A program made the translations under genes and the position numbers. From positions 1 to 39,892 of the forward strand of contig CAZQCI010000006.1 of NCBI GenBank assembly GCA_964592255.1: a stretch of 39,892 nucleotides of DNA, in the 5' to 3' direction. Shown one piece after another: positions 1 through 21,264 of this stretch (position 1 is the stretch's first letter; each line of letters begins with the position of its first letter). The notes beneath the pieces are model-generated. The model ran no database searches, was not told the DNA's origin, and saw nothing but the letters and a program-made list of their open reading frames with translations. The DNA is from an uncultured Nitrospiraceae bacterium. GTDB lineage: Bacteria > UBA10199 > SBBF01.

Positions 1-120
1 AATTGTTTTAAGGACTGCTCAGACAGTTCGAGCTCTTTCAAAAAACCAAAACATACCATTACTCAATTTTGTATTTTATTGATTTGAGGCCGGATAAACA
101 GTAAGGAGGAGAACCTAAAA

Positions 121-1038
121 ATGAAGAAAAGTCTTCCATCCAAACTCTCTCACTTAAAAGTATTGGAGGCCGAAAGCATCCATATCATTCGTGAGGTTGC
201 CGCTGAATTTGAAAACCCTGTCATGCTTTATTCCATTGGCAAGGATTCCTCCGTTATGGTGCGTCTGGCGCAAAAAGCATTTTACCCGGCACCTTTGCCT
301 TTTCCATTGATGCATATCAACACAACTTGGAAATTTAAGGAGATGATTCAATTCCGCGATCAGTTTTGCAAAGCAAACAGTCTGCGGCTGATTGAGCATA
401 TTAACCAGGATGCCATTAAAGAAGGGATCAATCCTTTCACACATGGAAGCCAAAAATATACAACGGCCCTTAAGACACAGGGATTAATCCAGGCGCTGGA
501 CAAATATGGTTTTGATGCCGCTTTTGGTGGAGCCCGACGTGACGAGGAAAAATCGCGTGCCAAGGAGCGGGTTTATTCCTTTCGTGACAAAAATCATCAA
601 TGGGATCCTAAAAATCAGCGGCCGGAATTGTGGAATCTCTACAACAGTAAAATTAACAAAGGTGAAAGCATTCGTGTGTTCCCTCTGTCTAACTGGACGG
701 AATTGGATATTTGGCTCTATATCGAGTTGGAAAAAATTCCCATCGTGCCTCTTTATTATGCCAAGAAACGTCCTGTAGTAGAACGTGGCGGGACACTCAT
801 CATGGTTGATGACGATAGGCTTCCTCTTAAAAAAGGTGAAAAACCACAGATGAAGACAGTGCGGTTCCGAACGCTTGGCTGCTATCCGCTTACGGGTGCC
901 ATTGAATCGAATGCCAAAACACTTAAAGATATTATTCAAGAAATGTTACTGACAAAATATTCCGAACGACAAGGTCGGTTGATCGACAGTGACGAGGATG
1001 CCTCGATGGAGAAGAAAAAACGGGAGGGGTATTTTTAA
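121..1038 (+). CDS. cysD: sulfate adenylyltransferase subunit 2 (CysD)
   Basis: 305-aa ORF with the PP-loop (SIGKDS) of the PAPS-reductase/ATP-sulfurylase small-subunit fold and CysD-like sequence end to end. An AGGAGG RBS precedes the ATG. Confidence 0.9.
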
Positions 1039-1040
1039 TG

Positions 1041-1136
1041 GTCATCCCCGCGAAGCCCCATAGGGGCGAAGGCGGGGATCCAGGTCCCCAGGGCATGGTG
1101 AACTTGAATCATGGATCCCCGCCTACGCGGGGATGA
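1041..1136. repeat. GC-rich hairpin doublet in the cysD-cysN spacer
   Basis: Two stems of ATCCCCGC / GCGGGGAT. The first encloses an inner GCCCC-ATA-GGGGC hairpin. The second (1114-1136, CTAC tetraloop) has its 3' arm overlapping the predicted cysN ATG. Confidence 0.6.
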
Positions 1137-2578
1137 CAGAAAATATAACAATGCAAGAATCCCAATTAATCAAAAAGGATATCGCCAAATATCTCCGCCT
1201 GCACCAAGAGAAAGAATTGCTGCGCTTTACTACGGCGGGATCCGTGGACGACGGAAAATCCACACTCATCGGGCGACTTTTGTTCGACACTAACGCCGTT
1301 TACGAAGATCAACTGGACTCTGCCCGCAAAGCAACCAAGATGGAAGTGGGGGAAGATATTGATCTCTCTCTTTTAACTGATGGTTTGAAAGCGGAACGCG
1401 AGCAGGGCATTACCATTGATGTTGCTTATCGTTATTTTACCACTGCTAAGCGCAAGTTCATCATCGCAGATACGCCAGGGCATGTTCAATACACCCGCAA
1501 CATGGCAACGGGCGCTTCCACGGCGGATGTGGCCATCATTCTAATTGATGCTCGTTTAGGAGTGCAGCCTCAATCAAAACGCCATGCGATGATCGCTTCT
1601 CTTTTAGGTATTCCAAAATTATTGGTGGCTGTTAACAAGATGGATTTAAAAAATTACAGCCAAAAAGTTTTTGAAGAAATTAAAACTGATTTTCAAAAAA
1701 TTGTTTCAACCATGACTTTTAAAGAAGTGGCTTTTTTTCCGGTGAGCGCCCTCAAGGGTGATAACGTTGCTGAAAAAAGTAAGAACATGCCTTGGTTTAA
1801 AAAAGGAACCGTTCTTAATTTTTTAGAAACAACACCTCTGATCCGGCATACGTCTCAAAGAGATTTGTTTTTTCCAGTTCAGTATGTTCTTCGGCCGGAT
1901 CTTAATTTTAGGGGTTATGCGGGGCAAATTGCCAGTGGTTCTGTTAACGTTGGTGATGAAGTGATGGTGCTGCCCGCCGGAAAAGTAAGCCGGGTTAAAT
2001 CCATTGTCACTTACGATGGAAAAATAAAATCAGCCAGCGAGCCACAATCGGTTGTGCTCACTCTCACCGATGAAGTCGACATCAGCCGTGGGGATGTGCT
2101 GGTGCATAAGAACAATCATTTTAGAGTTAGCCGCCAATTAAAAGCTGATGTCGTATGGATGAACGAAACACCACTTAAACTCAAGCATCCTTACTGGATT
2201 AAACAAGCTTCAAGTTTAGTGACGGGTTCTTTTACAAGTGTGGATCAAGGTCTTGACATCAATACGTTAGAAACCATTTCCGTCACCACCCTCAATCTTA
2301 ACGACATTGGCGAAGTCACTCTTAATTTGAGTCGTCCGTTGGTATTTGAGAATTATGAAAAAAATCGGCAGGCGGGTGCTTTCATCATCATCGACCGTCT
2401 TACCAATGCTACAATGGGTGCGGGGATGGTCTCCAGTGTTTTGGACAATACTATTTTGGATGAAAACGCAACAATGCCGATGGATCAGTTTCTTACTTCA
2501 TTAATCGACGAGAGATCGAGTGAGTCTGAAAAAGCCGACAAAATTATTTCTTATCTGCAACAAAGAAAATTTTTGTAA
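1133..2578 (+). CDS. cysN: sulfate adenylyltransferase subunit 1, GTPase (CysN)
   Basis: P-loop GSVDDGKST, DTPGH, NKMD GTPase motifs and EF-Tu-like domains typical of CysN. The start could instead be the ATG at 1150. Confidence 0.9.
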   Translation: MTENITMQESQLIKKDIAKYLRLHQEKELLRFTTAGSVDDGKSTLIGRLLFDTNAVYEDQLDSARKATKMEVGEDIDLSLLTDGLKAEREQGITIDVAYRYFTTAKRKFIIADTPGHVQYTRNMATGASTADVAIILIDARLGVQPQSKRHAMIASLLGIPKLLVAVNKMDLKNYSQKVFEEIKTDFQKIVSTMTFKEVAFFPVSALKGDNVAEKSKNMPWFKKGTVLNFLETTPLIRHTSQRDLFFPVQYVLRPDLNFRGYAGQIASGSVNVGDEVMVLPAGKVSRVKSIVTYDGKIKSASEPQSVVLTLTDEVDISRGDVLVHKNNHFRVSRQLKADVVWMNETPLKLKHPYWIKQASSLVTGSFTSVDQGLDINTLETISVTTLNLNDIGEVTLNLSRPLVFENYEKNRQAGAFIIIDRLTNATMGAGMVSSVLDNTILDENATMPMDQFLTSLIDERSSESEKADKIISYLQQRKFL

Positions 2579-2581
2579 GTT

Positions 2582-3421
2582 TTACTGCGGATTCAAAATA
2601 TTCTTAAAAAGTAAATCTAGGTTTGTATCTTCAAAAGGAATGGGAAGTCCTAAAGTCTGTTTATCACTCACCGTATTCCATGTGTCATTTATTTTAGAAA
2701 AAACAAATTCTGTCCATAAAATCTGTCCGTTGGCTAGCGTTGGCAAGGCAAGCATAATGCGTTCAGGATCTTCAGGATGTTTGTAACGAATGAGTAAGGC
2801 TTGTTTTGAATTATCGGCATCTAAAGAGACTAGTTGAATTTCTTGCAATTCTCTCCCAGGAGCGGGAATGGGCAGCATGGCTTGTTGTGGACTTTGGCCT
2901 TTAAGGGTTACGGTTACTTGACCCTGATTTATTTCAAAATTTTTAATGGGTACTAGAGGGTTAATTGTTACGTTTTCTGTGCGATTACCCAGTATACTTC
3001 CAAAAACAGTGGTATTGTAAGGAGTGGGGTTAGTTGTATTTAGTTGGGTTATTAAATTGGTCAATTCTTCAAAATTACCAATAAAAGGAAAGGCTGTTGA
3101 TAAGGAAGAAACCCCTTCATTTTTTAGTTTTCCATCCGGAATATTTTTTCCCGCATCGCCCAAATTAATTTTTTCTGTAGGTGTTTTAAAAAGACATGAT
3201 CCATGTTTATTTTTAAAAGAATATCCCGGATGAAAAGCGGCTAGTTCATCATACGCTTTAGCCAAAGCCTCACGTAAAGTTTCTTTATTACCTGATTGTG
3301 AAGAGTCTAAATCGTTAAAGGTATAAGGATCATTAGCCGTTGGATCGGTTTGAATCATCTGAGCTAATTCTTGATTGTTGGTATGCTGAAGAAGTAATTT
3401 ATTAAGCTTATTTTCTGCCAT
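2582..3421 (-). CDS. hypothetical protein (279 aa), distal gene of the sulfur operon
   Basis: Long ORF with no recognisable motif and no signal peptide. It is on the same strand as and directly downstream of cysH, and convergent with cysN (3-nt gap). Confidence 0.5.
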   Translation of the reverse strand: MAENKLNKLLLQHTNNQELAQMIQTDPTANDPYTFNDLDSSQSGNKETLREALAKAYDELAAFHPGYSFKNKHGSCLFKTPTEKINLGDAGKNIPDGKLKNEGVSSLSTAFPFIGNFEELTNLITQLNTTNPTPYNTTVFGSILGNRTENVTINPLVPIKNFEINQGQVTVTLKGQSPQQAMLPIPAPGRELQEIQLVSLDADNSKQALLIRYKHPEDPERIMLALPTLANGQILWTEFVFSKINDTWNTVSDKQTLGLPIPFEDTNLDLLFKNILNPQ

Positions 3422-3466
3422 AAAAGCCCCCTACTTATGTTTATCGGCAAAGAATTTAAAAAGTTG

Positions 3467-4240
3467 TTAAGAATCCATTTCGGTAGAGTCTTTAGGTTCT
3501 TCAACATGGAGACCACATTCTTTGGAATTGGGATCCAGGGCGTTAAACCACCGCCAGCGGCCGGCGCGCCTTGGTTCTGTTGGGGAAATAGGTGTGGTGC
3601 ACAGAATGCAACCCAGCGATTCGTAGGTCCAGCCGTTTTCGTTCCAGTTAAGTAAAGGGTGCATGGGCACTTTGTTTTTCTTGATGTAGTTGCGTAATTG
3701 TTCTTCTGTCCATTTGAGAAGCGGGGAGACTTTTAAAATCGGGTGATGATCTTCCGGATGATGAATGATTTGAAATTGGGGTGTTTTGGCTCTTCGGGCC
3801 GATTGATCGCTGCGTAGTCCGGTAAGCCAAACATCCACGGTTTTGAGAATTTTATTATTGGGGCGCACTTTTCGTATATTGCAGCACAGTTCCTGTTTTT
3901 CTTTGCTGTCGAAAAAAAGATATTCGCCGTTTTCGGAAATCATTTTCTTCAAATCCTCACCATCCGGCTGAGTGCGTTCAATTTGGATTTTATATTTTTT
4001 TTCTATTTCATCGAAGAGTTTATAACTTTCCGGAAAAAGACGGAGCGTATCCAGAGTGAATACACGCGGGTTAACTTTAGCATTGTGTGCTAAGTCGATC
4101 ATGACCACACCTGTTAATTGGCCGCTAGTGCCGATGGCCGCCCGCTTGCCGAAACGTGAAAAAATTTCGCCGATCAATTGACCCGCATCGGTGATTTTTT
4201 CAAGGTCGTGGATTAGCTCGTTATTGATGATAGTTTGCAA
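3467..4240 (-). CDS. cysH: adenylylsulfate (APS) reductase, thioredoxin-dependent, Fe-S type (CysH)
   Basis: PAPS-reductase fold with the C-terminal ECGLH catalytic motif, plus the extra Cys pairs (CC in ELCCNIRK and CxxC in GCILC) that distinguish APS reductases from PAPS reductases. TTG start. Confidence 0.85.
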   Translation of the reverse strand: MQTIINNELIHDLEKITDAGQLIGEIFSRFGKRAAIGTSGQLTGVVMIDLAHNAKVNPRVFTLDTLRLFPESYKLFDEIEKKYKIQIERTQPDGEDLKKMISENGEYLFFDSKEKQELCCNIRKVRPNNKILKTVDVWLTGLRSDQSARRAKTPQFQIIHHPEDHHPILKVSPLLKWTEEQLRNYIKKNKVPMHPLLNWNENGWTYESLGCILCTTPISPTEPRRAGRWRWFNALDPNSKECGLHVEEPKDSTEMDS

Positions 4241-4251
4241 TACTTTATTTA

Positions 4252-4340
4252 TATAACTCCTCCTACCCTCCCCTTATTTTAAGGGGAGGACTATTTATTT
4301 TCCCCCTCTTAATTATAAGAGGGGGTTGGGGGGAGTTATA
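4252..4340. repeat. MITE/REP-like palindromic element, family A
   Basis: Terminal inverted repeats TATAACTCC / GGAGTTATA flank two perfect 10-bp hairpins (CCTCCCCTTA-ttt-TAAGGGGAGG and CCCCCTCTTA-atta-TAAGAGGGGG). It sits in the cysC-cysH spacer. Confidence 0.7.
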
Positions 4341-4343
4341 CAA

Positions 4344-4955
4344 TCAAATAATTTTCTTTTCTTTTAAAAATGCAATGATCTTATCAACACTATCTTTCAA
4401 TCTTTCCTTTCCCGTCTGGAGAATCAATTCCGGGTTAAGAGGGGCTTCGTAAGGAGAAGAAAGTCCAGTAAAGTCGGGAATTTTTCCGTCACGTGCTTTT
4501 TTATACAATCCTTTTGGATCCCGACTTTCACATTCTTCCAACGTGGCGGCACAGTAAATTTCTATAAACCCGCGTTGAGGGATTAAGTTTCTTACAAAAT
4601 CTCTGTCTGTACGAAAAGGAGAGATGAAGGCTGTGAGCACAATAACATTAGATTCAAAAAATAGTTTGGATACTTCACCAATTCTGCGGATGTTTTCTTT
4701 TCGATCTTCTGGGGAAAAACCCAAATTATTATTTAAGCCGTGACGGATATTATCACCATCTAATACTGTGGCGAATTTTTTTTGTTTCAAAAGAATCTTT
4801 TCAACTTCGTAAGAAATTGTGGATTTACCCGAACCGGATAACCCTGTAAACCAAAGTACAGCACCTTTTTGACCCAGCAATTGTTCACGTTGAGCGGCAT
4901 CGATATGAGCCGTTTGCCGCACAATGTTTTGGCTTTTGGGTTGTTTTTCAGTCAT
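4344..4955 (-). CDS. cysC: adenylylsulfate kinase (CysC)
   Basis: P-loop GLSGSGKST and APS-kinase-wide similarity, at 203 aa. Confidence 0.9.
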   Translation of the reverse strand: MTEKQPKSQNIVRQTAHIDAAQREQLLGQKGAVLWFTGLSGSGKSTISYEVEKILLKQKKFATVLDGDNIRHGLNNNLGFSPEDRKENIRRIGEVSKLFFESNVIVLTAFISPFRTDRDFVRNLIPQRGFIEIYCAATLEECESRDPKGLYKKARDGKIPDFTGLSSPYEAPLNPELILQTGKERLKDSVDKIIAFLKEKKII

Positions 4956-5319
4956 TATAGACTTTCATTTCACACGATACGCTTTGGCTTATTTGCTGAA
5001 TATCAGAGTTACCGAATAATTTTTTCAAAAAATTTCTTTTTTCAGTAACCACAACTAAAAGATCCACATCAGGGTCTGCGGCCATTTTTTTACAAACATC
5101 GGCATAACTTCCGGCTTCTTGGCGTGTTTCAAAAGGCGCTTGAAAAGTGCGGCATTGTTTTTCAACCTCGTCGATGATTTTAGAATCCGCATCTTGGCCA
5201 TTTTCTTTCACAAAAACAAAACGGAGTGTTTTATTGCCTTCCTTGCATTTGTGAAGCGCCCAATGAAAACCTTCAGTTGATTGACGAGCCGGGGTAATGA
5301 TGTAGAGGATGAATTTCAA
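4948..5319 (-). CDS. universal stress protein family (UspA-like)
   Basis: 123 aa with an Usp-type alpha/beta fold signature. It overlaps the upstream carrier gene by 4 nt and cysC by 8 nt. TTG start. Confidence 0.6.
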   Translation of the reverse strand: MKFILYIITPARQSTEGFHWALHKCKEGNKTLRFVFVKENGQDADSKIIDEVEKQCRTFQAPFETRQEAGSYADVCKKMAADPDVDLLVVVTEKRNFLKKLFGNSDIQQISQSVSCEMKVYND

Positions 5320-5615
5320 ATTCCCCCCGCAATGGCCGGAACAATACTGATTTCGTCCCCGTCTTTTACTGCAGTTTTTTCTCCCTGTAAAAAACGGATA
5401 TCTTCGTCATTGACATAAAAATTGATAAAGCGGCGCAGTTGACCGCCTTCATCATAAAGACGCGATTTTAGCCCTGCAAATTGAGAGTCTAAGGAGCTTA
5501 AAACTTCACCGACAGTGGTGCCTTTACCTTCAACTTCGCCCAGATTTTGGGTTAGTTTTTGAAGAGGAGTTGGAATGCGCACTTTAATGGCCATAAATAA
5601 AAAGTAATTAGACAC
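5316..5615 (-). CDS. MoaD/ThiS-family sulfur-carrier protein (CysO-like) with a one-residue C-terminal extension (..AGG-I)
   Basis: A core of roughly 90 aa, MAIKVRIP...GEVE...ISIVPAIAGGI, typical of the beta-grasp sulfur carriers. The C-terminus is Gly-Gly-Ile. GTG start with an AAGGA SD, or the internal ATG eight codons downstream. Confidence 0.7.
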   Translation of the reverse strand: MSNYFLFMAIKVRIPTPLQKLTQNLGEVEGKGTTVGEVLSSLDSQFAGLKSRLYDEGGQLRRFINFYVNDEDIRFLQGEKTAVKDGDEISIVPAIAGGI

Positions 5616-5671
5616 CGATCCTTGTCACTAGCTTAAAACTAGGGACCATAAATCAGGGACTAATAACTGTA

Positions 5672-6139
5672 TTAAAGAATTTTTCTTTCTGCAAAATCGC
5701 TCGTTTGGTTGTCCCAATAAAATTCGGAAGAGTTTTTTACTTCACCTCCGTATACCGAGACAACGATATAAGATAAATCTGGAAATAAGGGTTCACCCCA
5801 AGGGGCGGCCATACCTTTATCTTCCGCTGAAAAATAAACACCATGTTCTGGATGCGAGTGAAAAATGCACAAAATCTTTTGATTATTTTTAAGGGCCTCT
5901 TTCTCAATTCGCTCCATATCTTTGGGATCAATTGTGTAGGCTGTTTTAGCATCGCGCGGATAGCGCTGAGGATCTTTCGCATGCACATCATTCTGGATGT
6001 TGTTAACCGCAATCACATTACTGGCGATACGTTTTCCATTAACTAAAGAACCGATGACAAAGCCACACCCTTCGTGAGGGTAACACTTCTCAGATTCTCT
6101 ATAAATGTCCTCTAATAATTGTTGTCGAATTTCTAACAT
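5672..6139 (-). CDS. JAMM/MPN+ zinc metalloprotease (Mec-like)
   Basis: Complete JAMM motif E..HSHPEHGVYFSAED (E, HxH, x7, S, xx, D). It is directly upstream of the sulfur-carrier gene. Confidence 0.8.
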   Translation of the reverse strand: MLEIRQQLLEDIYRESEKCYPHEGCGFVIGSLVNGKRIASNVIAVNNIQNDVHAKDPQRYPRDAKTAYTIDPKDMERIEKEALKNNQKILCIFHSHPEHGVYFSAEDKGMAAPWGEPLFPDLSYIVVSVYGGEVKNSSEFYWDNQTSDFAERKIL

Positions 6140-6158
6140 ATTAACTTTGATAAGTTGT

Positions 6159-6224
6159 CATTGCGAGGCAAGTGGCAACGAAGCAATCCAGCTGGATTAC
6201 CGTGGCCCTGTGGACCTCGCGATG
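6159..6224. repeat. MITE/REP-like palindromic element, family B
   Basis: Terminal inverted repeats CATTGCGAGG / CCTCGCGATG with an inner perfect palindrome AATCCAGCTGGATT. It lies in the spacer between the JAMM and CysM-like genes. Confidence 0.55.
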
Positions 6225-6231
6225 ATGGCTA

Positions 6232-7134
6232 CTACCATTTCATTCCTTCAAAATACCGGTCGCCGTGATCGGGAAAAATGGTGACGATAACGCCCGACTT
6301 TATTTTTTGTGCTAACCGGATACAAGCTAAAAGAGCACCTCCTGACGAGTAGCCAACTAAAAGTCCTTCTTCTTTTCCCAAACGTTCCACTAAATCGTAA
6401 CTGGGTTCGGTTTCTATGCCCATGACCTCGTCCAATTCTGCTTCTTTATAAATTCCTGGAACGATGGAGGTGGGCATGTGTTTTAATCCTTCTAGTCCAT
6501 GCAAAGAATCGGCGGGCTGGGCTCCGACACAATAAATTTTTTTATTAAAATCTTTAAGCCGCCGTGTAATACCCATAGCCGTTCCACTGGTGCCCATGGT
6601 GGCTACAAAGTGAGTGACTTTTTTGTCTGTCTGCTCCCAAATCTCAACGCCTGTTGTGTCGTAATGCGCTTGAGGATTCATGGTGTTATTATATTGGTCC
6701 GGCATAAAATATTTTCCAGGATTTTCCGAAAACAATTTTCTGGAAAGGCGGATGGCGCCATCGGAGCCTTCCATTTCGCTGCTGAAGGTGATGGAGGCAC
6801 CAAAAGCTTTGGCCATTTCCTTGCGTTGATAAGACACATTTCCTGGCATAACCAGTTCCACTTGATATCCTAACGCAGCCCCGACCATGGCGTAGGCTAC
6901 CCCTGTGTTTCCAGATGTGGGGTCCATGATGATTTTATCTTTGGTTAGTTTTCCCGATTTAATTCCTTCCATCACCATTCGGTAGGCGGCACGGTCTTTG
7001 ACCGATCCGCCGGGATTGAAATATTCCAATTTAGCGTAAATGGAAACGGAATCGGGAATTAACCCTTTTACTGTTTCTCGAATACGGACTAAAGGAGTAT
7101 TGCCGATGCGCTCTAATATGGACGACAGAATCAT
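6232..7134 (-). CDS. PLP-dependent cysteine synthase family protein (CysM-like, candidate thiocarboxylate-dependent)
   Basis: Fold-type II PLP enzyme with the lysine motif SVKDR and GNTG. It is clustered with the MoaD-like carrier and JAMM protease, as in CysO/CysM/Mec. Confidence 0.75.
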   Translation of the reverse strand: MILSSILERIGNTPLVRIRETVKGLIPDSVSIYAKLEYFNPGGSVKDRAAYRMVMEGIKSGKLTKDKIIMDPTSGNTGVAYAMVGAALGYQVELVMPGNVSYQRKEMAKAFGASITFSSEMEGSDGAIRLSRKLFSENPGKYFMPDQYNNTMNPQAHYDTTGVEIWEQTDKKVTHFVATMGTSGTAMGITRRLKDFNKKIYCVGAQPADSLHGLEGLKHMPTSIVPGIYKEAELDEVMGIETEPSYDLVERLGKEEGLLVGYSSGGALLACIRLAQKIKSGVIVTIFPDHGDRYFEGMKW

Positions 7135-7136
7135 TC

Positions 7137-7400
7137 TTACCCTTCGATCACATTCATCTCGATGGGTTCCACCGTCAACCCACGCGACTGGAAGAATTTC
7201 ATGGCCTCAGTGACTTTGTCATCTGGCCCTTCTAATTCTACAGCCATCAAACCGACTTGTTCATTAACCGAAGCGGAGCGAATATTGAAGCGGACTTTGT
7301 ATTTGTCATACATGTCGCAAATGATGGCTTCCTTCACTTGCTGAGTGGGGAAAGTTAAATAAACTTTGCGTCGTACGTTTTTAGACATATTTTTGCTCAT
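7137..7400 (-). CDS. NIL-domain protein (87 aa)
   Basis: GLMAVELEGPDDKVTEAMKFFQSRGLTVEPI matches the NIL (MetN C-terminal-like) ferredoxin-like domain. It ends ..VIEG. Confidence 0.55.
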   Translation of the reverse strand: MSKNMSKNVRRKVYLTFPTQQVKEAIICDMYDKYKVRFNIRSASVNEQVGLMAVELEGPDDKVTEAMKFFQSRGLTVEPIEMNVIEG

Positions 7401-7452
7401 CCTTCGACAGGCTCAGGATGTCCTGATGGGGACATGGTGAGCTTGTCGAACC
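7401..7452. repeat. MITE/REP-like palindromic element, family C copy 1
   Basis: Near-perfect 50-nt hairpin TTCGACAGGCTCAGGATGTCC-tgatgg-GGACATGGTGAGCTTGTCGAA that exactly fills the ThrC-like/NIL spacer. Confidence 0.65.
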
Positions 7453-7459
7453 ATGATAC

Positions 7460-8695
7460 TTAATTCGTTTTTATTTTTTCCACCAACTCTTCAAATTCCG
7501 CAAGAGTCGGTTTGATAATAGGCGGTTTACCTAATTTGTCCACCACAGCTTCCTGTGTTTTTAAGCCGTTACCGGTGATACACAGCACAATGGATTCGTC
7601 TTTAGGAATACGTCCCGATTCAATCAGTTTTTTTGCAACCCCCATGGTAACCCCACCGGCTGTTTCGGCAAAAATCCCTTCACTTTCAGCTAAAAGTCTA
7701 ATGCCTTCAATGACTTCGTCATCACTGACATCTTCGCACCAACCGCCGCTTTGAAGGGCGGCTTTAGCAGCATAGAAGCCATCTGCCGGGTTACCGATGG
7801 CTAGTGATTTAGCAATTGTATTTGGTTTGACGGGTTTAAAAATTTCCCAACCATTTTTAACAGCGGTGGAAATGGGGGAACAGCCTGTGGCTTGTGCTCC
7901 ATAGATTTTGGCATCATTTTTTTCAATCAAGTTCAGTTTGTGAAATTCGTGAAATGATTTGTCGATTTTGGTTAAAAGTGATCCGCTGGCCATGGGCACA
8001 ACAACATGTTGTGGGGTGCGCCAGCCTAGTTGTTCCATAATTTCATAACCCATCGATTTGGAGCCTTCGGCATAATAAGGGCGCATATTGATGTTGACGA
8101 AAGCCCATTTATATTTGCCGGCAATTTCACTGCAGAGGCGGTTGACTTCATCATAAGTTCCATGAATGCCGACCAAATGTGTTCCATAAATCATTGTTCC
8201 TAAAACTTTGGTGGCTTCCAGATCATACGGAATAAAAACAAAGCTTTCAAAGTCACCAGCCGCAGCATTGGCCGCAACGGAATTAGCCAAATTTCCAGTA
8301 GAGGCGCAGGATACCACTTTAAAACCAAATTCGCGTGCTTTGGAAAGGGCCACTGAAACAACCCGATCTTTAAAAGAAAGAGTTGGGTAGTTAACAGCAT
8401 CATTTTTAATGTAGAGTTCTTTTACTCCCAAAGCTTTGGCTAGGCGGTTGGCGCGACGTAAGGGGGTGAATCCCGTTTGGCGCCCTACTGTGGGATCATT
8501 ATCAATCGGTAGTAATTCCTTATAGCGCCACATGTTGGGTCCACGAGAGAGAATTTTTTCGCGATTTAAATCTTTTTTGATTAAATCATAATCGTAAACC
8601 ACTTCCAAAGGGCCAAAACAAAATTCACAAACATGTGTTGGTTCTTTGGGGTATTCATGGCCGCATTCACGGCATTTTAAGGCTTTGGCGTACAT
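7460..8695 (-). CDS. threonine-synthase-like PLP enzyme with N-terminal zinc ribbon
   Basis: ThrC-family fold (SFKDR lysine motif) preceded by CRECGHEY..CEFC. From its operon context (SAM riboswitch, NIL partner, sulfur carrier) it may be a homocysteine-forming ThrC paralog rather than a bona fide ThrC. Confidence 0.7.
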   Translation of the reverse strand: MYAKALKCRECGHEYPKEPTHVCEFCFGPLEVVYDYDLIKKDLNREKILSRGPNMWRYKELLPIDNDPTVGRQTGFTPLRRANRLAKALGVKELYIKNDAVNYPTLSFKDRVVSVALSKAREFGFKVVSCASTGNLANSVAANAAAGDFESFVFIPYDLEATKVLGTMIYGTHLVGIHGTYDEVNRLCSEIAGKYKWAFVNINMRPYYAEGSKSMGYEIMEQLGWRTPQHVVVPMASGSLLTKIDKSFHEFHKLNLIEKNDAKIYGAQATGCSPISTAVKNGWEIFKPVKPNTIAKSLAIGNPADGFYAAKAALQSGGWCEDVSDDEVIEGIRLLAESEGIFAETAGGVTMGVAKKLIESGRIPKDESIVLCITGNGLKTQEAVVDKLGKPPIIKPTLAEFEELVEKIKTN

Positions 8696-8767
8696 AGGTT
8701 GATTTGTTTGTACTTCGTTCGATGGCCCTCTCGTTTTTTAGGAGAGAACCATGGCACGATGGTACGA

Positions 8768-9691
8768 TTAATTTTTAAAAAATTCCTCCAAACTAAAATA
8801 TCTTTGCCCGGCGTCACACAAAAACGTGAGAACTTTTTTTCCAGGACCTAATTTTTGAGCCACCTGCAAAGAGGCATGGATGTTGGCTCCGCTGGAAATA
8901 CCAACCAAAAGACCTTCCTCGCGTGACAGTCTACGAGTAGCGGCATAGGCTTCCGCATCGGTAACGGTAACTACTTCGTCAATCAAACTCCGATTCAGGT
9001 TTTTAGGAATAAACCCATGGCCTAATTGCTGAATTCGATGCCTGCCCGGTTTTCCTCCTGATAAGACGGACGATGCCCGTGGCTCTACGGCTACAATTTT
9101 CATCTTTGGGTTTTTTCCCTTTAACACTTCACCCACGCCGGTCAAACTACCTCCGGTTCCAACACCTAGAACTAAGGCATCCACACCCTCTGGAAAATCT
9201 TCCAAAATTTCCACCGCTGTTGTTTTACGGTGGGCTTCAGGATTAGCGGTGTTGTCAAATTGATGTGGAGCAAAACAATTTTTGTTTTTTGCCACATATT
9301 CTTCGGCTCGTTTAATGGCCCCTTCTAGTCCTTCGGTACTGGGTGTTTTGTGGAGAGTGGCCCCAAAACCATAAAACATTTTCCGTCGCTCTAAACTCAT
9401 GTCTTCAGGCATGAAGATGACTAATTTTAACTTTTTAACAGCGCACACCATGGCCAATGCGACGCCTGTATTGCCAGCGGTAGCATCGACGATTTCCGTA
9501 TCTTTTTTAATTTTGCCTTCCGTCAGTCCTTTTTCAATCATCGCCAGTGCAATGCGGTCTTTGATAGAAAGGCTAGGGTTTCCGGCCTCATATTTGCCGA
9601 AAATGTCCGCATTTTTTCCTTCCGCGATTTTTTTTAAGCGGATAATCGGGGTTCTTCCGATCGTATTAAGAATAGAGTCGGCAATTTTCAT
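8768..9691 (-). CDS. cysK: cysteine synthase A (O-acetylserine sulfhydrylase, CysK)
   Basis: SIKDR, GNTG and the GISSGA-like PLP motifs. The F/L-rich N-terminal extension in the ORF track is just the terminator U-tract, so the true start is the ATG at 9691 (MKIADS..). Confidence 0.85.
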   Translation of the reverse strand: MKIADSILNTIGRTPIIRLKKIAEGKNADIFGKYEAGNPSLSIKDRIALAMIEKGLTEGKIKKDTEIVDATAGNTGVALAMVCAVKKLKLVIFMPEDMSLERRKMFYGFGATLHKTPSTEGLEGAIKRAEEYVAKNKNCFAPHQFDNTANPEAHRKTTAVEILEDFPEGVDALVLGVGTGGSLTGVGEVLKGKNPKMKIVAVEPRASSVLSGGKPGRHRIQQLGHGFIPKNLNRSLIDEVVTVTDAEAYAATRRLSREEGLLVGISSGANIHASLQVAQKLGPGKKVLTFLCDAGQRYFSLEEFFKN

Positions 9692-9699
9692 GAGTAAGA

Positions 9700-9746
9700 A
9701 AGCAAACAAAAAAGACAAAAAAAAACCTCTTCTTGTAAGAAGAGGG
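9700..9746 (-). terminator. intrinsic terminator (riboswitch expression platform)
   Basis: Minus-strand hairpin CCTCTTCTT-aca-AAGAAGAGG followed by TTTTTTTTTGTCTTTTTTGTTTG, immediately 5' of cysK. Confidence 0.8.
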
Positions 9747-9868
9747 ATAATTAAACTCTTCTTATCTTTCCCAAACGGGACGGAATTAGCACCTTAATAA
9801 GATCTTTTATAAAGGTTGCTGTGGCTTCAACGGGCCTATCCCTCAGCCACTCTGGATAAGATGTGGCA
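9700..9868 (-). ncRNA. SAM-I (S-box) riboswitch
   Basis: Minus-strand read CUUAUCcAGAGuGGCuGAGGGAuaGGCCCGuuGAAGCcaCAGCAACC ... AAGGUGCUAAUUCC ... GAUAAGAAG matches the S-box consensus block by block (P1 CUUAUC/GAUAAG). It is followed by a terminator whose 5' arm can alternatively pair with the P1 3' strand. Confidence 0.85.
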
Positions 9869-9897
9869 AGCTAACAAACGCTCCTTGACTCTGTCAA
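9868..9897 (-). promoter_or_regulatory. candidate sigma70 promoter for the riboswitch-led operon
   Basis: Minus strand TTGACA, 18-nt spacer, TAGCTT (TAnnnT), about 7 nt before the riboswitch P1. The -35 lies inside the palindrome CTTGACAGAGTCAAG. Confidence 0.35.
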
Positions 9898-9920
9898 GTG
9901 GAATGCCGTAATTAAAGGGC

Positions 9921-11357
9921 ATGTCTCAATACGAAACCGTCATTGGTCTTGAGGTGCATGCTCAGCTTCGGACTCAATCTAAAATCTTTTGTTCTTGTTC
10001 TACAGCTTTTGGATCTCCTCCTAATCAAAACACATGTCCTGTTTGTTTAGGGCTTCCGGGGGTTTTGCCTGTTTTGAATAAAAAAGTAGCTCATTTTGCC
10101 ATTGCGGCGGGGCTTGCTTTAAACTGTGATATTCAGAAAAAATCCATTTGGGCGCGAAAAAATTATTTTTATCCCGATCTTCCTAAGGGCTATCAAATTT
10201 CCCAATATGAAGAGCCTATTTGTCTCAAAGGACATTTGGATATTGTTGTTAGTGGAAACAAAAAACGTGTGGGGATTACTCGTATTCACATGGAAGAAGA
10301 TGCTGGAAAATTATTGCACGATCACGGCGACCCTTCATCGTCACACGTCGACTTAAACCGCGCGGGAACCCCGCTCATCGAAATTGTCAGCGAACCCGAT
10401 ATGCGTTCGGCCGTGGAAGCCGGAGAATATTTGCGACAGCTTCGTTCTATACTGCGCTATTGTGGTGTGTGTGACGGTAATATGGAAGAAGGCAGCTTGC
10501 GCTGTGACGCGAATGTATCGATACGTCCCTTAGGCCAAAAGGAATTCGGCACAAAAGTGGAATTAAAAAACATCAATTCGTTTAAATATGTAGAAAAAGC
10601 GATTGAGTATGAAGTGGAACGTCAAAAAGCGTGTCTTCTTTCTGGTGAAAAAATTGTTCAAGAAACCCGTCTTTTTGATTCCGCTAAAGGAACGACGGAA
10701 TCGATGCGTTCTAAAGAACAGGCGCATGATTATCGTTATTTTCCCGACCCCGATTTGGTACCCCTTGTTCTTGATGATGTTTGGATTGAGACTGTCCGCA
10801 AGGAATTACCCGAATTGCCTTTGGCGCGCTCGGCCCGTTTTATCACAGAGTATCAAATTCCGGAATATGATGCGGATGTGCTAACTGTAGAAAAAGCGCT
10901 GGCTGATTATTTTGAAGCGAGCGTCGCTCTTTGCAAACAGCCGAAGAAAGTATCCAATTGGATTATGACGGAACTTCTCCGCGAACTTAAAAATTCCGGA
11001 AAAGATATCGAAGATTCACCCATTACACCATCTCAATTAGCCAAGCTGGTAGAACTTGTAGAAAACAACACCATTAGTGGCAAAATCGGTAAAACTGTTT
11101 TTGAAGAAATGTTTGCTACTGGTAAAAATCCTGAAGCTATCATCGAGGAAAAAGGTTTTGTTCAAGTTTCCGACACCGGTGCTATCGAATCCATCATCGA
11201 CAAAGTGATGGCAGCCAATCCTCATCAACTGGCTCAATATAAATCCGGCAAAGATAAACTTTTCGGATTTTTTGTAGGCCAAGTGATGAAAGAAATGAAA
11301 GGCCAAGGAAACCCCGCCGTTATTAATGATTTGCTCAAAAAGAAATTGTCCGTTTAA
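9921..11357 (+). CDS. gatB: Asp-tRNA(Asn)/Glu-tRNA(Gln) amidotransferase subunit B (GatB)
   Basis: N-terminus [12 protein letters not shown], then the GatB/YqeY C-terminal domain, at 478 aa. Confidence 0.9.
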
Positions 11358-11851: not shown

Positions 11852-12922
11852 ATGATTTCTTTTAAAACAATCGAATGGAAAAATAACACCGTTGTCATGC
11901 TCGACCAACGGGCTTTGCCGTCTCAGGAAGTTTATCTTACTTTTCGCACGGCTGAAGAAGTAGGGGAGGCTATTAAATCCATGGTTATTCGTGGGGCTCC
12001 GGCTATTGGGGTTGCGGGAGCCATGGGTTTGGCTCTGGGAGCTTTGGAGATTGAAACCACAGACTCTGCTGACTTTGTTCGTCAGTTGGAAATTAAAGCC
12101 GATATGCTTTTGAAAACACGGCCTACAGCTGTGAATCTTCAATGGGGTTTGGAAAGAATGAAGAAGGTTGTGAGTAACTCCCCCCAACCCCCTCTTACTT
12201 TAAAAGGGGGAGTTAACTTCTTACAAACTCTTCTTGTTGCCGAAGCGCAAAAAATTCTAGAAGAAGATATTACCATCAACCAAAAAATGGGGGCTTACGG
12301 AGCCTCCCTGATTCAATCGGGGGATCATGTTCTTACGCATTGCAATGCCGGGGCTTTAGCCACTGCTGGATTTGGTACAGCTTTGGGCGTTTTGTATGCC
12401 GCTTGGGAGCAAGGAAAAAAATTCGACGTGTATGCCGACGAAACTCGTCCTTTTTTGCAAGGGGCTCGTCTCACAGCCTGGGAGTTGCATAAAAATAATA
12501 TTCCTACCACCCTGATCACCGACAATATGGCGGGCTGGATGATGAAAAAAGGATTGATTACAAAAGTCATCGTCGGTGCCGACCGCATTGCGGCTAATGG
12601 AGATACAGCCAATAAGATTGGAACTTATTCTGTTGCGATTCTAGCGCATCATCACAAAATTCCTTTTTATGTGGCAGCCCCTTTATCCACCATCGATCTT
12701 AAAACCAAAACAGGGGATGGTATTGTTATTGAAGAAAGAGATACCCGGGAAGTCACTCACCTTATGGGGACACCCGCTGCCGGTAATCTCATTGCGCCGG
12801 AAGGCATTCGGGTTCGCAATCCCGCTTTTGATGTAACCCCCGCCGATCTCATCACCGCCATCATTACGGAAAAGGGAATAGTCGAAAAACCGTTTTTTCA
12901 AAATATCCAAGCTCTGTTTTGA
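11852..12922 (+). CDS. mtnA: S-methyl-5-thioribose-1-phosphate isomerase (MtnA, eIF-2B family)
   Basis: [15 protein letters not shown] and the C-terminal [18 protein letters not shown] motifs of MtnA. It contains an in-frame copy of the family-A palindromic element. Confidence 0.8.
12175..12216. repeat. in-frame copy of palindromic element family A inside mtnA
   Basis: TAACTCCCCCCAACCCCCTCTTA is the exact reverse complement of 4316-4338. A 10-bp TIR TAACTCCCCC / GGGGGAGTTA encloses a hairpin. At 42 nt (14 codons) it reads through as ..[14 protein letters not shown].. Confidence 0.7.
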
Positions 12923-13022: not shown

Positions 13023-13949
13023 ATGGGAAAAGTAACAAAAGTTGAAAAAATTTGGTTAGACGGAAAATTAGTTCCTTGGGATTCTGCCCAGGTTCATGTG
13101 CTGACGTACGCTCTTCATTATGGCCTGGGAGTATTTGAAGGGATTCGATGTTATGAATGTGCTGATGGAACAAGTGCCATCTTTCGTTTGAAAGAGCATA
13201 TCGATCGGCTGTTTGATTCTGCTAAAATCAACATGATGGAAATTCCGTTTACGCGGGAAGAATTAATGCAAGCTTGTAAAGATGTTGTTAAAAAGAACGG
13301 TCTTAAATCCGCTTATATTCGTCCTTTAGTTTTTGTCGGTGATGGGGAAATGGGATTAGTTGCTTTTAATAACCCCGTTCGCGTGATGATTGCGGCTTGG
13401 TCGTGGGGAAGTTATTTGGGCGATGAAGGAGTTAAAAATGGCATCCGTGCTAAAATTTCCAGTTATTCGCGTTACAATGTAAACGGCAATATGACGCGGG
13501 CTAAAACGTGCGGCAGCTACATTAATTCCATTCTAGCCAAGCGCGAAGCTCTGGACGCTGGTTATGAAGAAGCTCTTTTGCTGGATGCTGAAGGTTATCT
13601 TGCCGAGGCTACCGGGGAAAATATTTTTGTTGTTCGGGATGGTGTAGTTCGTACACCGGGCTCGGGCTCTTCCATTCTTTTGGGTATTACCCGTCATACG
13701 CTTATGACATTATTGCAAGAAGAAGGCATTGTCTGTCGGGAAGACCGTATTACACGTGATGAAGCTTATATTGCCGATGAAATTTTTCTCTGTGGTACGG
13801 CTGCGGAACTTACCCCCATTCGTGAACTTGATGGGCGAAAGATTGGCACAGGCAAGCCAGGACCCATCACTAAAAAACTACAGGAAATTTATTTTGGTCT
13901 CATTCGCGGCAAAAATCCTAAACACAAAGAATGGCTGGCAAGTGTTTAA
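13023..13949 (+). CDS. ilvE: branched-chain amino acid aminotransferase (class IV PLP, IlvE)
   Basis: VFEGIRCY, the HIDRL-type motifs and its length of 308 aa. Confidence 0.8.
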   Translation: MGKVTKVEKIWLDGKLVPWDSAQVHVLTYALHYGLGVFEGIRCYECADGTSAIFRLKEHIDRLFDSAKINMMEIPFTREELMQACKDVVKKNGLKSAYIRPLVFVGDGEMGLVAFNNPVRVMIAAWSWGSYLGDEGVKNGIRAKISSYSRYNVNGNMTRAKTCGSYINSILAKREALDAGYEEALLLDAEGYLAEATGENIFVVRDGVVRTPGSGSSILLGITRHTLMTLLQEEGIVCREDRITRDEAYIADEIFLCGTAAELTPIRELDGRKIGTGKPGPITKKLQEIYFGLIRGKNPKHKEWLASV

Positions 13950-14543: not shown

Positions 14544-16295
14544 TTAAGCAACAAAAACGTTGGCACTTGTTTGGGAAGGATAATAATCGCTATCGGATAA
14601 GTCGATGTCTTCGGGAATAATTTCTTCATCTTGGGCTAATTCAAAAGCCGCAGCGGCAATTTGTTCCGTTGTGGAATCGCGGCCTTCTTGTCCCATGCCA
14701 CCTTCTCCTTGGCTGCCACGGTCGCTGACACCGTTTAAGGGCTTATCAAGGCTAGCTGCCACTTCACGAGAAGTTTTTGATTCGGAAACAAGATTTCCGT
14801 TATTGCCAGCCATGACTCCTGATGCAAAAGCTTGAGCCGGAAGAATGACAGGGTTAGCTGCCGAAGGAACTATATTTCCATTGTTTTGAGCTGTTGTGAC
14901 AATTGAAGCGGAAACAGATTGTTCCGCAACTGAGTTTGGACCCGTGTTGTTAATATTTAAAACCGTTGAGTCAGAACCGGTATCAGTTTCATGAGACGAG
15001 TTATCTGTTAAAGCTGAAGCGTTTTCAGTGGAGGTGCCTTGAGCTTGTTGATGTTGGCCATCAGTACCATTTGTGGCTACTGAGGTCAGTTTGGCTTCTC
15101 CCTGAGCGCTAAGCGATGATGTTTGTCCTGTATTTGTTGAAGACTCAACGGAGCCTTCTAAATTTTGGTGAGCCCCACCTTGCACTAGCTCTGTTCCTGC
15201 ATTGGCTACAAGGATTGAAGAATTTGAAGTTGTTTCTGAAGCCTTATCAGTTGTTAAAAAATTTCCTGACACATCGGATGAAGTAACTGTGGTGCCGGTG
15301 CTTGTTGTATTTGCTGTACTTCCCGATGTTGTGGCCAAAAGTGTGTTTGTTGTTGTTGCTGTGGCTGGCTCAGATGAAGATTGTTGAGTTACGGAAGTTG
15401 TTCTTGTGGTTGACGATGTTGAGCTTGTTGCGCCAACGGTTGTGCTGGCCATTAAATTGGCGACAGAGCCTGTATCCGTTATTTCCGTTTCTGTGGAGCC
15501 GGGTTCATATGAGTTGCTGTACCAAATGCTGGTTGGGAGGTTAAAGATAGAACTGGTACCGGTTAATTCTGTTGTTGGGGTGGATCCAGTAGATCCTTGT
15601 TGAGGAGCAACTTCAGTTGCAGCTACTTCGGGAGAAGGTGCGGGTGCTGCTGTTCGCGCATTTGTCGTTGTTGCAGTAGCTATAGCGGTTTTGGTTTCTT
15701 GAGCATTTGGAATAATTTCTGGAATTGCAGCTAAAGTCGTTTGTTGTGGATCTGCTGTAGTGGGTGCTAGGTATTGAGATAACGAGGCTACAAGTTGGTC
15801 CCCGGCTTCCTCTCCCATCACAGCTTTGGCCACCGTGGCAATATCTTCGGCATGCTCTGCTAAAACTTTTTTGGCGGCATCTTCTAATTCAGCCACGCCT
15901 TGTTGTGTGTCTTCTGGTAAAAGTTTTTTAGCCCCTTCGTAAAGGGCTGCTGCTGCTTGAGCCGTATCTTTATGGGCTTCGATGTTAGAATCAACAATGG
16001 CGGCAGCTAAATCTTGTGCGGCTTTTGTTGGGTCTTTCTTTATATCATCAAGAGAGTGTTTATCGTAGAATTTTACAATAGCGGCGGTTGTTGGAAATTC
16101 TTTTTCAAGAGCTTTCGTTGCTTCATCAACATACTGATTGGCTATGTTAGTGTACTCATCAGCCGTTTGAGATACTTCCTCCGAATTAGGCAAACCAATC
16201 TTGGGAGCATACTCATCGTAAGTGCTAACAAGACTGTCTTTAGCATCGTCGTAGAGGGAGCTGAGCCAACTTTTATTTTCCGTCGGTGAAGTCAT
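14544..16295 (-). CDS. Ser/Thr/Ala-rich low-complexity protein (583 aa), unknown function
   Basis: A helical N-terminal region of about 200 aa, a roughly 300-aa T/S/A/G/N-rich disordered tract, and an acidic C-terminus (DEEIIPEDIDLSDSDYY). No signal peptide. Confidence 0.5.
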   Translation of the reverse strand: MTSPTENKSWLSSLYDDAKDSLVSTYDEYAPKIGLPNSEEVSQTADEYTNIANQYVDEATKALEKEFPTTAAIVKFYDKHSLDDIKKDPTKAAQDLAAAIVDSNIEAHKDTAQAAAALYEGAKKLLPEDTQQGVAELEDAAKKVLAEHAEDIATVAKAVMGEEAGDQLVASLSQYLAPTTADPQQTTLAAIPEIIPNAQETKTAIATATTTNARTAAPAPSPEVAATEVAPQQGSTGSTPTTELTGTSSIFNLPTSIWYSNSYEPGSTETEITDTGSVANLMASTTVGATSSTSSTTRTTSVTQQSSSEPATATTTNTLLATTSGSTANTTSTGTTVTSSDVSGNFLTTDKASETTSNSSILVANAGTELVQGGAHQNLEGSVESSTNTGQTSSLSAQGEAKLTSVATNGTDGQHQQAQGTSTENASALTDNSSHETDTGSDSTVLNINNTGPNSVAEQSVSASIVTTAQNNGNIVPSAANPVILPAQAFASGVMAGNNGNLVSESKTSREVAASLDKPLNGVSDRGSQGEGGMGQEGRDSTTEQIAAAAFELAQDEEIIPEDIDLSDSDYYPSQTSANVFVA

Positions 16296-19123: not shown

Positions 19124-19426
19124 ATGTGGCAAATTATCATCGATCCTCTTGTTGAAAAAGAAGATTTTAAAAATATACCGCTAGAAGATCAAAGACTAAT
19201 TCTTAGGACTCTTCGCAAGAAATTATCTCTTTCTCCCGATAATTTTGGTAAGCCATTAGCCAAAGAATTAAAAGGCTATCGGTGTTTACGCGTTGCGGAT
19301 TATCGGGTCATTTACCGAATTCTCCATCAACAAGTTATTGTGAAAGTAGTCAAAATTGGTGCTCGACGTGATGATGAAGTTTATGAAGAAATGTTAAAAA
19401 GATTACCATATTTGCCTGAATTATAA
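19124..19426 (+). CDS. RelE/ParE-family type II toxin
   Basis: KGYRCLRVADYRVIYRI...VIVKVVKIGARRD matches the RelE/ParE core, at 100 aa. It is divergent from the Phd-like gene, with a 120-bp AT-rich shared promoter region between them. Confidence 0.65.
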   Translation: MWQIIIDPLVEKEDFKNIPLEDQRLILRTLRKKLSLSPDNFGKPLAKELKGYRCLRVADYRVIYRILHQQVIVKVVKIGARRDDEVYEEMLKRLPYLPEL

Positions 19427-20814: not shown

Positions 20815-20816
20815 TT

Positions 20817-21245
20817 ATGATGTATCTTACATTTAAATCGCTTCATATCATTTTCATGGTCGCTTGGTTTGCCGAGCTATTTTATATCTTTCGTTTGTTT
20901 GTCTACCATACCAAGCACCAAGCAAATCCGGAGCTTTGCAAAGTGTTTGAGATTATGGAGCATAAACTGATTTATTTTATTGGCCATCCCGCAATGCTTT
21001 TCACGATTATTTTTGGCATTACAATGATTTTTAAAAACCCGTCTCTATGGCAAGAAAAATGGTTGCACGCCAAGCTTGGATTGGTTGTTTTATTGATGGG
21101 TTATCAATTTTTCTCCGGTTTTGTCCGACGCAAAATGGCAAAGAGAGATTTTTTTCTTTCGGAAAAAGCATGCCGCATTATTAACGAAGTTCCAGCGTTA
21201 TTATTGATCGCTATCGTTTTTTTAGTGATGTTAAAGCCGTTTTGA
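20817..21245 (+). CDS. hemJ: protoporphyrinogen IX oxidase HemJ (UPF0093 family)
   Basis: N-terminus YLTFKSLHIIFMVAWFAELFYIFRLFVYH matches the HemJ family hallmark. It has 4 TM helices at about 140 aa. Confidence 0.7.
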   Translation: MMYLTFKSLHIIFMVAWFAELFYIFRLFVYHTKHQANPELCKVFEIMEHKLIYFIGHPAMLFTIIFGITMIFKNPSLWQEKWLHAKLGLVVLLMGYQFFSGFVRRKMAKRDFFLSEKACRIINEVPALLLIAIVFLVMLKPF

Positions 21246-21264
21246 GACATGAGCTATTTTTATT

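Follow-up and report, generated by a model that had tools for sequence, protein, structure and literature searches.

A SAM-I riboswitch at the head of a predicted thiocarboxylate operon for cysteine and homocysteine in an uncultured Nitrospiraceae bacterium

The SAM-I aptamer and its expression platform

The DNA analyzed here, called the window, is a stretch of 39,892 nucleotides (nt) from an uncultured Nitrospiraceae bacterium (assembly GCA_964592255.1, contig CAZQCI010000006.1). Its minus strand carries an S-adenosylmethionine (SAM) riboswitch of the SAM-I (S-box) family and, downstream of it, ten genes on the same strand, which run from cysK through the genes of a threonine synthase-like (ThrC-like) enzyme and a ThiS/MoaD-family sulfur carrier to cysC, cysH and an orphan open reading frame (ORF). 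For comparison, 80 genomic loci with orthologs of the ThrC-like gene (62-84% identical to the window protein across phyla) were fetched, and gene positions were mapped by tblastn. With the further loci fetched, 84 in all, they are numbered L001-L084, and those with 83-87% ThrC identity and common gatB-mtnA-ilvE-pgpA neighbours are called close relatives. The record titles of the 80 loci name metagenome-assembled genomes (MAGs) labelled Deltaproteobacteria, Zetaproteobacteria including Mariprofundus, Verrucomicrobiota, Planctomycetota, Chlamydiae, Dadabacteria, Thermodesulfobacteriota and others.

The full window was searched with cmscan against all 4227 families of Rfam 15. RF00162 (SAM-I/S-box) was the sole match above its gathering score, with 85.3 bits against 44.4 (E 5.9e-19) at 9759-9862 (-), and no other credible match appeared when bases 1-10000 were scanned at permissive settings. 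The match is not truncated, spanning model positions 1-108 of 108, and the cmscan alignment matches all upper-case consensus positions of Rfam, including the AGAG, GAGGGA, GCAACC, GGUGC-AA-CC and AUAAG blocks. The minimum-energy fold of the isolated 104-nt aptamer is the four-way junction of helices P1-P4 (-34.5 kcal/mol). Moreover, a covariance model of our own, built on seven Rfam-confirmed leaders, scored the window aptamer at 98 bits. Among 47 related leaders, 95.6% of the cells were paired and double (compensatory) changes were present in 13 of the 25 pairs; none of 500 shuffles reached such a value and a slid control came nowhere near it. Selective binding of SAM would be expected of an aptamer with these features.

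The aptamer is followed by an intrinsic terminator hairpin (9745-9726, CCUCUUCU-UACA-AGAAGAGG) and a tract of nine uridines (U9). In addition, UAAGAAGAG (9764-9756) can pair with CUCUUCUUA (9744-9736) to form a 9-bp antiterminator helix, which is present in the minimum-energy fold of a nascent transcript ending at 9734, before the 3' arm of the terminator has been made. This helix cannot coexist with the P1 pairing of the strand 9766-9760 (its 3' strand) or with the terminator pairing of the 5' arm, and since it shares bases with both, the arrangement is that of a classical transcriptional OFF switch. A hairpin and U-tract directly after the aptamer were also found in 40 of the 49 related leaders, mostly with the same CCUCUUCUUA arm.

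Regarding these results, the original prediction, made from the sequence alone, of a SAM-I riboswitch with a terminator/antiterminator switch at 9700-9868 held in each of its parts. The search with RF00162 gave the score reported above, the S-box blocks quoted in the prediction can all be read in the minus strand, the interval takes in both the aptamer and the terminator, and the 8-bp hairpin with U9 and the overlapping antiterminator were found. A degenerate or relic riboswitch was considered and rejected, as the aptamer is full length and high scoring and the expression platform is intact.

The promoter listed in Table 1 was missed by a consensus scan because its -10 element is weak. Its TTGACA...CGTTTGTTA block is kept in the relatives L083, L001 and L081, and the transcription start is predicted at about 9861, that is, about the first base of P1.

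The downstream genes and the reach of the switch

Gene families were assigned with Pfam and NCBIfam (Table 1), and all ten identities, together with the order and the common direction of the genes, agree with those originally proposed. For the stand-alone NIL-domain protein the start is more likely at 7388, which gives 83 amino acids (aa), the length of its homologs. The solved structures closest to the CysM-like protein are CysM of E. coli and Salmonella (235 bits). In the translation of the JAMM gene, which lies directly upstream of the carrier gene, the motif HSHPEHGVYFSAED (HxH-x7-S-xx-D) is intact and the upstream Glu is present. The best solved homologs of the carrier are 4n6e_B (E 3e-22) and CysO of M. 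tuberculosis, 3dwg_C (E 2e-21, 79 bits, full length). The Usp-like gene overlaps the carrier stop by 4 nt with its start and the cysC start by 8 nt with its stop, and it is conserved after the carrier gene in L001 and L081-L084.

The last ORF, of 279 aa, has no Pfam or NCBIfam match and no homolog among 5.8 billion proteins, and it is absent from all related loci. Its GC content is 0.38 versus 0.43-0.46 in the core genes, and its stop lies 3 nt from the stop of cysN, which together with cysD is convergent to the operon on the plus strand. It is probably a lineage-specific gene, because an ORF of such length in AT-rich DNA is unlikely to arise by chance.

Table 1. Features of the riboswitch locus in the window (APS, adenosine 5'-phosphosulfate; PAPS, 3'-phosphoadenosine 5'-phosphosulfate; PLP, pyridoxal 5'-phosphate)
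Feature	Position	Strand	Basis or remark
Promoter: -35 TTGACA (9897-9892), 18-nt spacer, extended-10 TG (9876-9875), -10 TAGCTT (9873-9868)	9868-9897	-	read from sequence
SAM-I (S-box) riboswitch aptamer, helices P1-P4	9759-9862	-	RF00162, fold, covariation
Antiterminator helix	9736-9764	-	alternative fold, -8.7 kcal/mol
Intrinsic terminator: 8-bp stem (9745-9738 with 9733-9726), UACA loop, U9 (9725-9717)	9717-9745	-	motif scan, fold
cysK (O-acetylserine sulfhydrylase A)	8768-9691	-	TIGR01139, 392 bits vs 351 cut-off; PALP
ThrC-like PLP enzyme, N-terminal CxxC...CxxC zinc ribbon	7460-8695	-	PALP and NinF-type ribbon; TIGR00260, 274 bits
Stand-alone NIL-domain protein	7137-7400	-	PF09383, 56 bits
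CysM-like cysteine synthase	6232-7134	-	TIGR01138, 354 bits, under the 394-bit equivalog cut-off
JAMM/MPN+ metallopeptidase (Mec/HcyD-like)	5672-6139	-	PF14464, 70 bits
ThiS/MoaD-family sulfur carrier, CysO/MetO-like	5316-5594	-	PF02597, 64 bits
Usp-like protein	4948-5319	-	PF00582, 28.5 bits vs 24-bit cut-off (weak, above)
cysC (APS kinase)	4344-4955	-	PF01583, 220 bits; NF003013, 274 bits
Twin GC-rich hairpins, cysC-cysH spacer (4325-4302, 4289-4267)	4267-4325	-	fold
cysH (APS/PAPS reductase; CC...CxxC cysteines, ECGLH motif)	3467-4240	-	PF01507, 125 bits; NF002537, 198 bits vs 154 cut-off
Orphan 279-aa ORF	2582-3421	-	operon membership uncertain

A single transcript of about 7 kb had also been proposed for these genes. 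In support of it, the ten genes lie on one strand with a largest spacer of 103 nt, and no intrinsic terminator (hairpin and U-tract) was found in any spacer of the series. Conservation, by contrast, is confined to a seven-gene core from cysK to the Usp-like gene, syntenic in L001, L081, L082, L083 and L084. Downstream of this core, L081 and L082 have cinA-cysD-cysN and L083 has sat, whereas the cysC-cysH pair is convergent in L084, lies farther off on the opposite strand in L083 and is on the opposite strand in L003 too. Co-transcription is likely at least through cysC, because the gene overlaps the Usp-like gene and no canonical terminator interrupts the spacers. It is probable through cysH and uncertain through the orphan ORF, so that a single 7-kb transcript is plausible but unproven.

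A shorter unit deserves serious consideration, even if we regard it as the less probable arrangement. The riboswitch would then govern the core, probably with cysC, and cysH and the 279-aa ORF would be expressed separately or uncoupled by the twin hairpins of the cysC-cysH spacer, acting as a processing site, a barrier to RNA decay or a terminator independent of a U-tract. Besides the restricted conservation of the core among close relatives and the orphan nature and lower GC content of the last ORF, the fold of this spacer speaks for it: the interval 4241-4343 folds at -52 kcal/mol with a z-score of about -7 to -10 (-7.4 in one test), and similar twin hairpins occur in the cysC-cysH spacers of L084 (14101-14201 (-)) and L003 (8120-8326 (-)). 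Nevertheless, the hairpins, of the form CCYCCCYUUAA...UUAAGGGRGG with Shine-Dalgarno-like 3' arms, are not followed by a U-tract on the minus strand, and in the relatives they stand inside a cysC-cysH unit; as cysH has to be expressed there too, this speaks against a complete block. Moreover, the consensus scan gave no promoter-like site in this spacer, and the translation of cysC is coupled to that of the Usp-like gene. Since the element accompanies the cysC-cysH pair in L084 and L003, however the pair is oriented relative to the core operon, it is part of a two-gene module and not an operon boundary, and it may be a translational or RNA-processing element. No Rfam family was found for this spacer, where only sub-threshold matches to eukaryotic microRNAs appeared, dismissed as chance, and no copies resembling repetitive extragenic palindromes (REP) were found elsewhere in the window. 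Stable stem-loops without a U-tract (z = -3.6 to -4.8) are also present in the spacers at 8696-8767, 7401-7459, 6140-6231 and 5595-5671 (-), and these may be intercistronic processing or stabilizing elements of the core operon.

The reach of the switch would be still narrower if control were mainly translational, with the terminator hairpin hiding the ribosome-binding site of cysK (GAAGAGG, 9732-9726) and only cysK regulated directly. The start of cysK is ambiguous, at ATG 9691 or TTG 9718. The 3' arm of the hairpin, a possible Shine-Dalgarno sequence, is the sole sequence of this kind before cysK and lies 7 nt ahead of TTG 9718, and in L084 the cysK ATG directly follows the U-tract. However, a GC-containing 8-bp stem that runs straight into U9 is the hallmark of an intrinsic terminator, and the U-tract is kept in most of the related leaders, as described above. 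The two modes are not exclusive, and the terminator hairpin may also mask the ribosome-binding site; translation as the main level of control seems unlikely.

Concerning the surroundings of the operon, mtnA (methylthioribose-1-phosphate isomerase, of methionine salvage) and ilvE (branched-chain aminotransferase) lie at 11852-12922 (+) and 13023-13949 (+), beyond a divergent gatB. The gatB-mtnA-ilvE arrangement is syntenic in L081 and L084, which makes this a methionine-related neighbourhood. On the other side, the cysD-cysN spacer is filled by a 17-nt inverted repeat at 1066-1128 (+), 94% complementary and with a 29-nt loop. Farther away, a haem biosynthesis cluster (19432-25408) encodes a HemN-like radical SAM enzyme, a UPF0093 protein, ferrochelatase and a 654-aa fusion of uroporphyrinogen-III synthase (HemD) and uroporphyrinogen decarboxylase (HemE). 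The window also holds a ParE-type toxin (19124-19426), a PIN-domain protein (32887-33285) and three ORFs without a Pfam domain, of 583 aa at 14544-16295 (-), 1107 aa at 33423-36746 (+) and 321 aa at 38520-39485 (-).

The ThrC-like gene, the sulfur carrier and their partners

The ThrC-like gene adjoins the carrier gene in about 76 of the 80 loci, often with the NIL gene too. A regular expression had detected SAM-I in 23 loci; this count was superseded by that of the covariance model, which placed a same-strand aptamer upstream in 46 of the 80 loci (62-107 bits), across about eight phylum-level groups. The aptamer stands directly upstream of the ThrC-like gene in 42 of these 46, ending 69-378 nt before the start codon. 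Hence, the switch has the ThrC-like gene, rather than cysK, as its conserved target. This conserved linkage of SAM-I, ThrC-like gene and carrier is a computed result, from which we infer the enzyme chemistry: the ThrC-like protein is proposed to be a MetM-type homocysteine synthase, using O-phosphohomoserine and the thiocarboxylate of the carrier. The linkage also supports the earlier idea that SAM control implies methionine synthesis, and in a more specific form than had been claimed.

The enzyme could instead be an ordinary threonine synthase. The riboswitch would then set the balance between threonine and methionine synthesis at their O-phosphohomoserine branch point, and carrier, JAMM and CysM-like protein would make up a separate module for cysteine. 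In fact, the protein exceeds the 167-bit cut-off of the thrC equivalog TIGR00260, all its solved homologs are threonine synthases, and its homologs are publicly annotated as such. Furthermore, a cyanobacterial (Microcystis) MetM homolog has threonine synthase and deaminase activity in vitro (PMC12172450). The annotation argument is weakened by the GapMind 2026 preprint, according to which MetM commonly carries a wrong threonine synthase annotation. Identity to B. subtilis ThrC over the catalytic domains is only 37.9%, and residues 1-55, which form the CxxC...CxxC ribbon, are unmatched in all solved ThrC structures. About 50 loci have the pair of ThrC-like gene and carrier but no CysM gene in its vicinity, and SAM-I stands directly before the ThrC-like gene in the 42 loci mentioned above. 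Regulation points the same way, since with a true thrC under a SAM-OFF switch more O-phosphohomoserine would flow to methionine just when SAM is high, contrary to what such control should achieve. None of the 84 fetched loci was found to hold a second, canonical thrC paralog, a result of little weight because the loci are short. Taken together, the threonine synthase interpretation is quite improbable.

The proposed homocysteine synthase would depend on a mature carrier. The C-terminus of the window carrier is PAIAGG-I, with the PAIAGG motif conserved and one residue beyond Gly-Gly. Its orthologs in L001-L084 have 0-9 variable residues at this place, most of them 1-9 (K, R, C, I, L, Y and others), and carriers ending exactly in GG were found in Verrucomicrobiota-labelled loci and in L039, L046, L057 and L074. 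These extra residues suggest that proteolytic maturation by the adjacent JAMM peptidase would be needed in most lineages. The CysM-like, JAMM and carrier genes are consecutive in the window and in at least 15 related loci, and the CysM-like gene adjoins the other two in several phyla.

The NIL gene occurs in about half of the related clusters. In four loci, the carrier and NIL domains (ThiS and NIL by Pfam) form a single ORF with NIL after Gly-Gly (L002:8167-8679, L050:3622-4149, L062:2626-3144 and L067:11260-11760), and ORF read-through indicates the same fusion in L054 and L065, so that at least six lineages have it. In L056 (14096-15160), the carrier is fused to a ThiF E1 enzyme rather than to NIL. 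These fusions tie the NIL protein of the window to carrier function. The NIL protein gave no significant match among solved structures, and a literature search for a connection between the NIL domain and ThiS/MoaD carriers gave nothing relevant; likewise, no description was found of the recurrent NIL partner, the carrier-NIL fusions, the carrier-ThiF fusion or the conserved Usp-like gene.

Tentatively, the carrier and the ThrC-like homocysteine synthase may need NIL as a third partner, the Usp-like protein may be a further one, and a single carrier may serve both a ThrC-fold and a CysM-fold synthase under one SAM signal; this extended scheme is possible, if doubtful as a whole. NIL could be a feedback module that binds methionine or homocysteine, or a removable pro-domain cleaved by JAMM. 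As a precedent, a JAMM protein of D. radiodurans is reported to cleave a MoaD-MoaE fusion. In any case, the NIL partner and the carrier-NIL fusions are a concrete lead on an uncharacterized component.

Proposed mechanism and relation to known systems

Overall, the locus is quite probably a SAM-I OFF switch over a thiocarboxylate operon for cysteine and homocysteine. Transcription would start from the sigma-70-type promoter (-35 at 9897-9892) at about the first base of the aptamer (9862-9759). When SAM is high, it would bind and lock P1, the hairpin with U9 (9745-9717) would form and transcription would stop before cysK, leaving the entire branch from sulfur to cysteine and homocysteine off. 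When SAM is low, the 3' strand of P1 would pair with the 5' arm of the terminator, the terminator would be blocked and RNA polymerase would enter the operon. Read-through would yield the ThrC-like homocysteine synthase with its carrier and the JAMM peptidase, two cysteine synthases (CysM-like and CysK), and the APS kinase and reductase. The carrier would be made with one extra C-terminal residue (GG-I), which the JAMM peptidase would trim; an E1 enzyme from outside the window would adenylate it, and sulfur would be loaded. The ThrC-like enzyme, if of MetM type, would use the carrier thiocarboxylate and O-phosphohomoserine to form homocysteine, and the CysM-like enzyme would use the thiocarboxylate to form cysteine, where JAMM may also release the adduct. 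CysK would add a sulfide-dependent route to cysteine, and CysC, probably with CysH, would supply reduced sulfur.

Several observations weigh against this interpretation, in addition to the displacement of cysC-cysH in relatives, the thrC score and the activity of the Microcystis enzyme. The close relative L083, with 87% ThrC-like identity, is a natural riboswitch-less variant: at L083:1112-1200 the promoter block (TTGACAGAGTCAAG..CGTTTGTTA) is retained, the riboswitch is absent and the promoter lies about 30 nt from the cysK ATG, so SAM control is dispensable. In the window itself, the cysK ATG at 9691 agrees with homolog N-termini but has no Shine-Dalgarno sequence, and the stable hairpins in all spacers longer than 50 nt could attenuate or process the transcript. 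The orthology of the ThrC-like protein to MetM is argued from gene context, and M. tuberculosis CysM is outside the best 60 solved matches of the CysM-like protein (all at least 165 bits). Furthermore, no ThiF/MoeZ-type E1 and no sulfite reductase were found in the window, so that the pathway is locally incomplete. The E1 may be encoded elsewhere in the genome, and sulfite reductase would be supplied from there as well; in the distant SAM-I-controlled clusters L029 and L018, ThiF and a small sulfite reductase stand in line and complete the pathway.

With these points considered, the locus can be read as a clear and well-supported case of the O-phosphohomoserine/thiocarboxylate route to homocysteine, which was described only recently. 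This route seems to be widespread and SAM-regulated in uncultured lineages, represented by MAGs labelled Deltaproteobacteria, Zetaproteobacteria, Verrucomicrobiota, Planctomycetota and Chlamydiae. "Threonine synthase" genes beside a small ThiS/MoaD gene can be re-read as likely homocysteine synthases, and this re-annotation matters for predicting methionine auxotrophy or prototrophy in MAGs.

With regard to known systems, the riboswitch RNA is a standard member of RF00162 and brings nothing new to RNA biology. It resembles the B. subtilis yitJ, metIC and cysH-operon leaders in its full-length family match, four-way junction and conserved core nucleotides, and in having a terminator/antiterminator OFF platform over sulfur and methionine genes. 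The difference lies in the host, an uncultured lineage with relatives labelled Deltaproteobacteria instead of a Firmicute, and in the regulated genes, which belong to a thiocarboxylate pathway and not to the metI/metC/metE set.

The CysO-CysM-Mec cysteine pathway of Mycobacterium tuberculosis was reportedly described by Burns and colleagues in 2005, with 3DWG as a structure. The window shares with it a clear CysO homolog and an adjacent pair of a cysteine synthase B-type enzyme and a JAMM protein. It differs in that the CysM-like protein is nearer to E. coli CysM than to that of M. tuberculosis, one residue follows the Gly-Gly of the carrier, the carrier gene is common to a ThrC-like enzyme, and there is SAM control. 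Wolinella succinogenes is said to have a thiocarboxylate-dependent methionine pathway, HcyS-HcyD-HcyF-MetY, reported by Krishnamoorthy and Begley in 2011. Here the likeness is in a C-terminal extension of the carrier that JAMM removes, in homocysteine sulfur drawn from a protein thiocarboxylate, as proposed for the window, and in clustering with sulfate-assimilation genes. The window would use a ThrC-fold sulfhydrylase, presumably with O-phosphohomoserine, instead of MetY with O-acetylhomoserine, and it lacks the E1 and sulfite reductase genes.

The general operon class corresponds to the ThiS/MoaD-JAB-E1-cysteine synthase neighbourhoods, types 4c-4e, of Iyer, Burroughs and Aravind 2006 (PMC1779556), a survey with 0 occurrences of threonine synthase-like or NIL-domain partners.

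The closest counterpart is the MetM/MetO system of Streptomyces albulus (Hasebe et al. 2024, Appl Environ Microbiol 90:e01247-24). As described in the GapMind 2026 preprint, MetM is homologous to ThrC and converts O-phosphohomoserine to homocysteine with thiocarboxylated MetO; Mec, a JAMM peptidase, matures MetO, and MoeZ is the E1. A paper citing Hasebe et al. 2024 gives MetM as 33% identical to B. subtilis ThrC. The metM gene has a SAM riboswitch upstream (PMC12172450); SAM riboswitch control of metM is therefore already published, and both the switch and the pathway type are known. The likeness to the window consists of a ThrC homolog, a ThiS/MoaD carrier with Gly-Gly, a JAMM protein (Mec) and a SAM riboswitch upstream of the ThrC homolog, and it is one of gene content and context. 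In the window, however, cysK stands between the riboswitch and the ThrC-like gene, the E1 is not local, and CysM-like, NIL-domain and Usp-like genes share the operon. Judging from these genes, the locus appears to merge the MetM/MetO arrangement with a cysteine module of the CysM/JAMM/CysO type.

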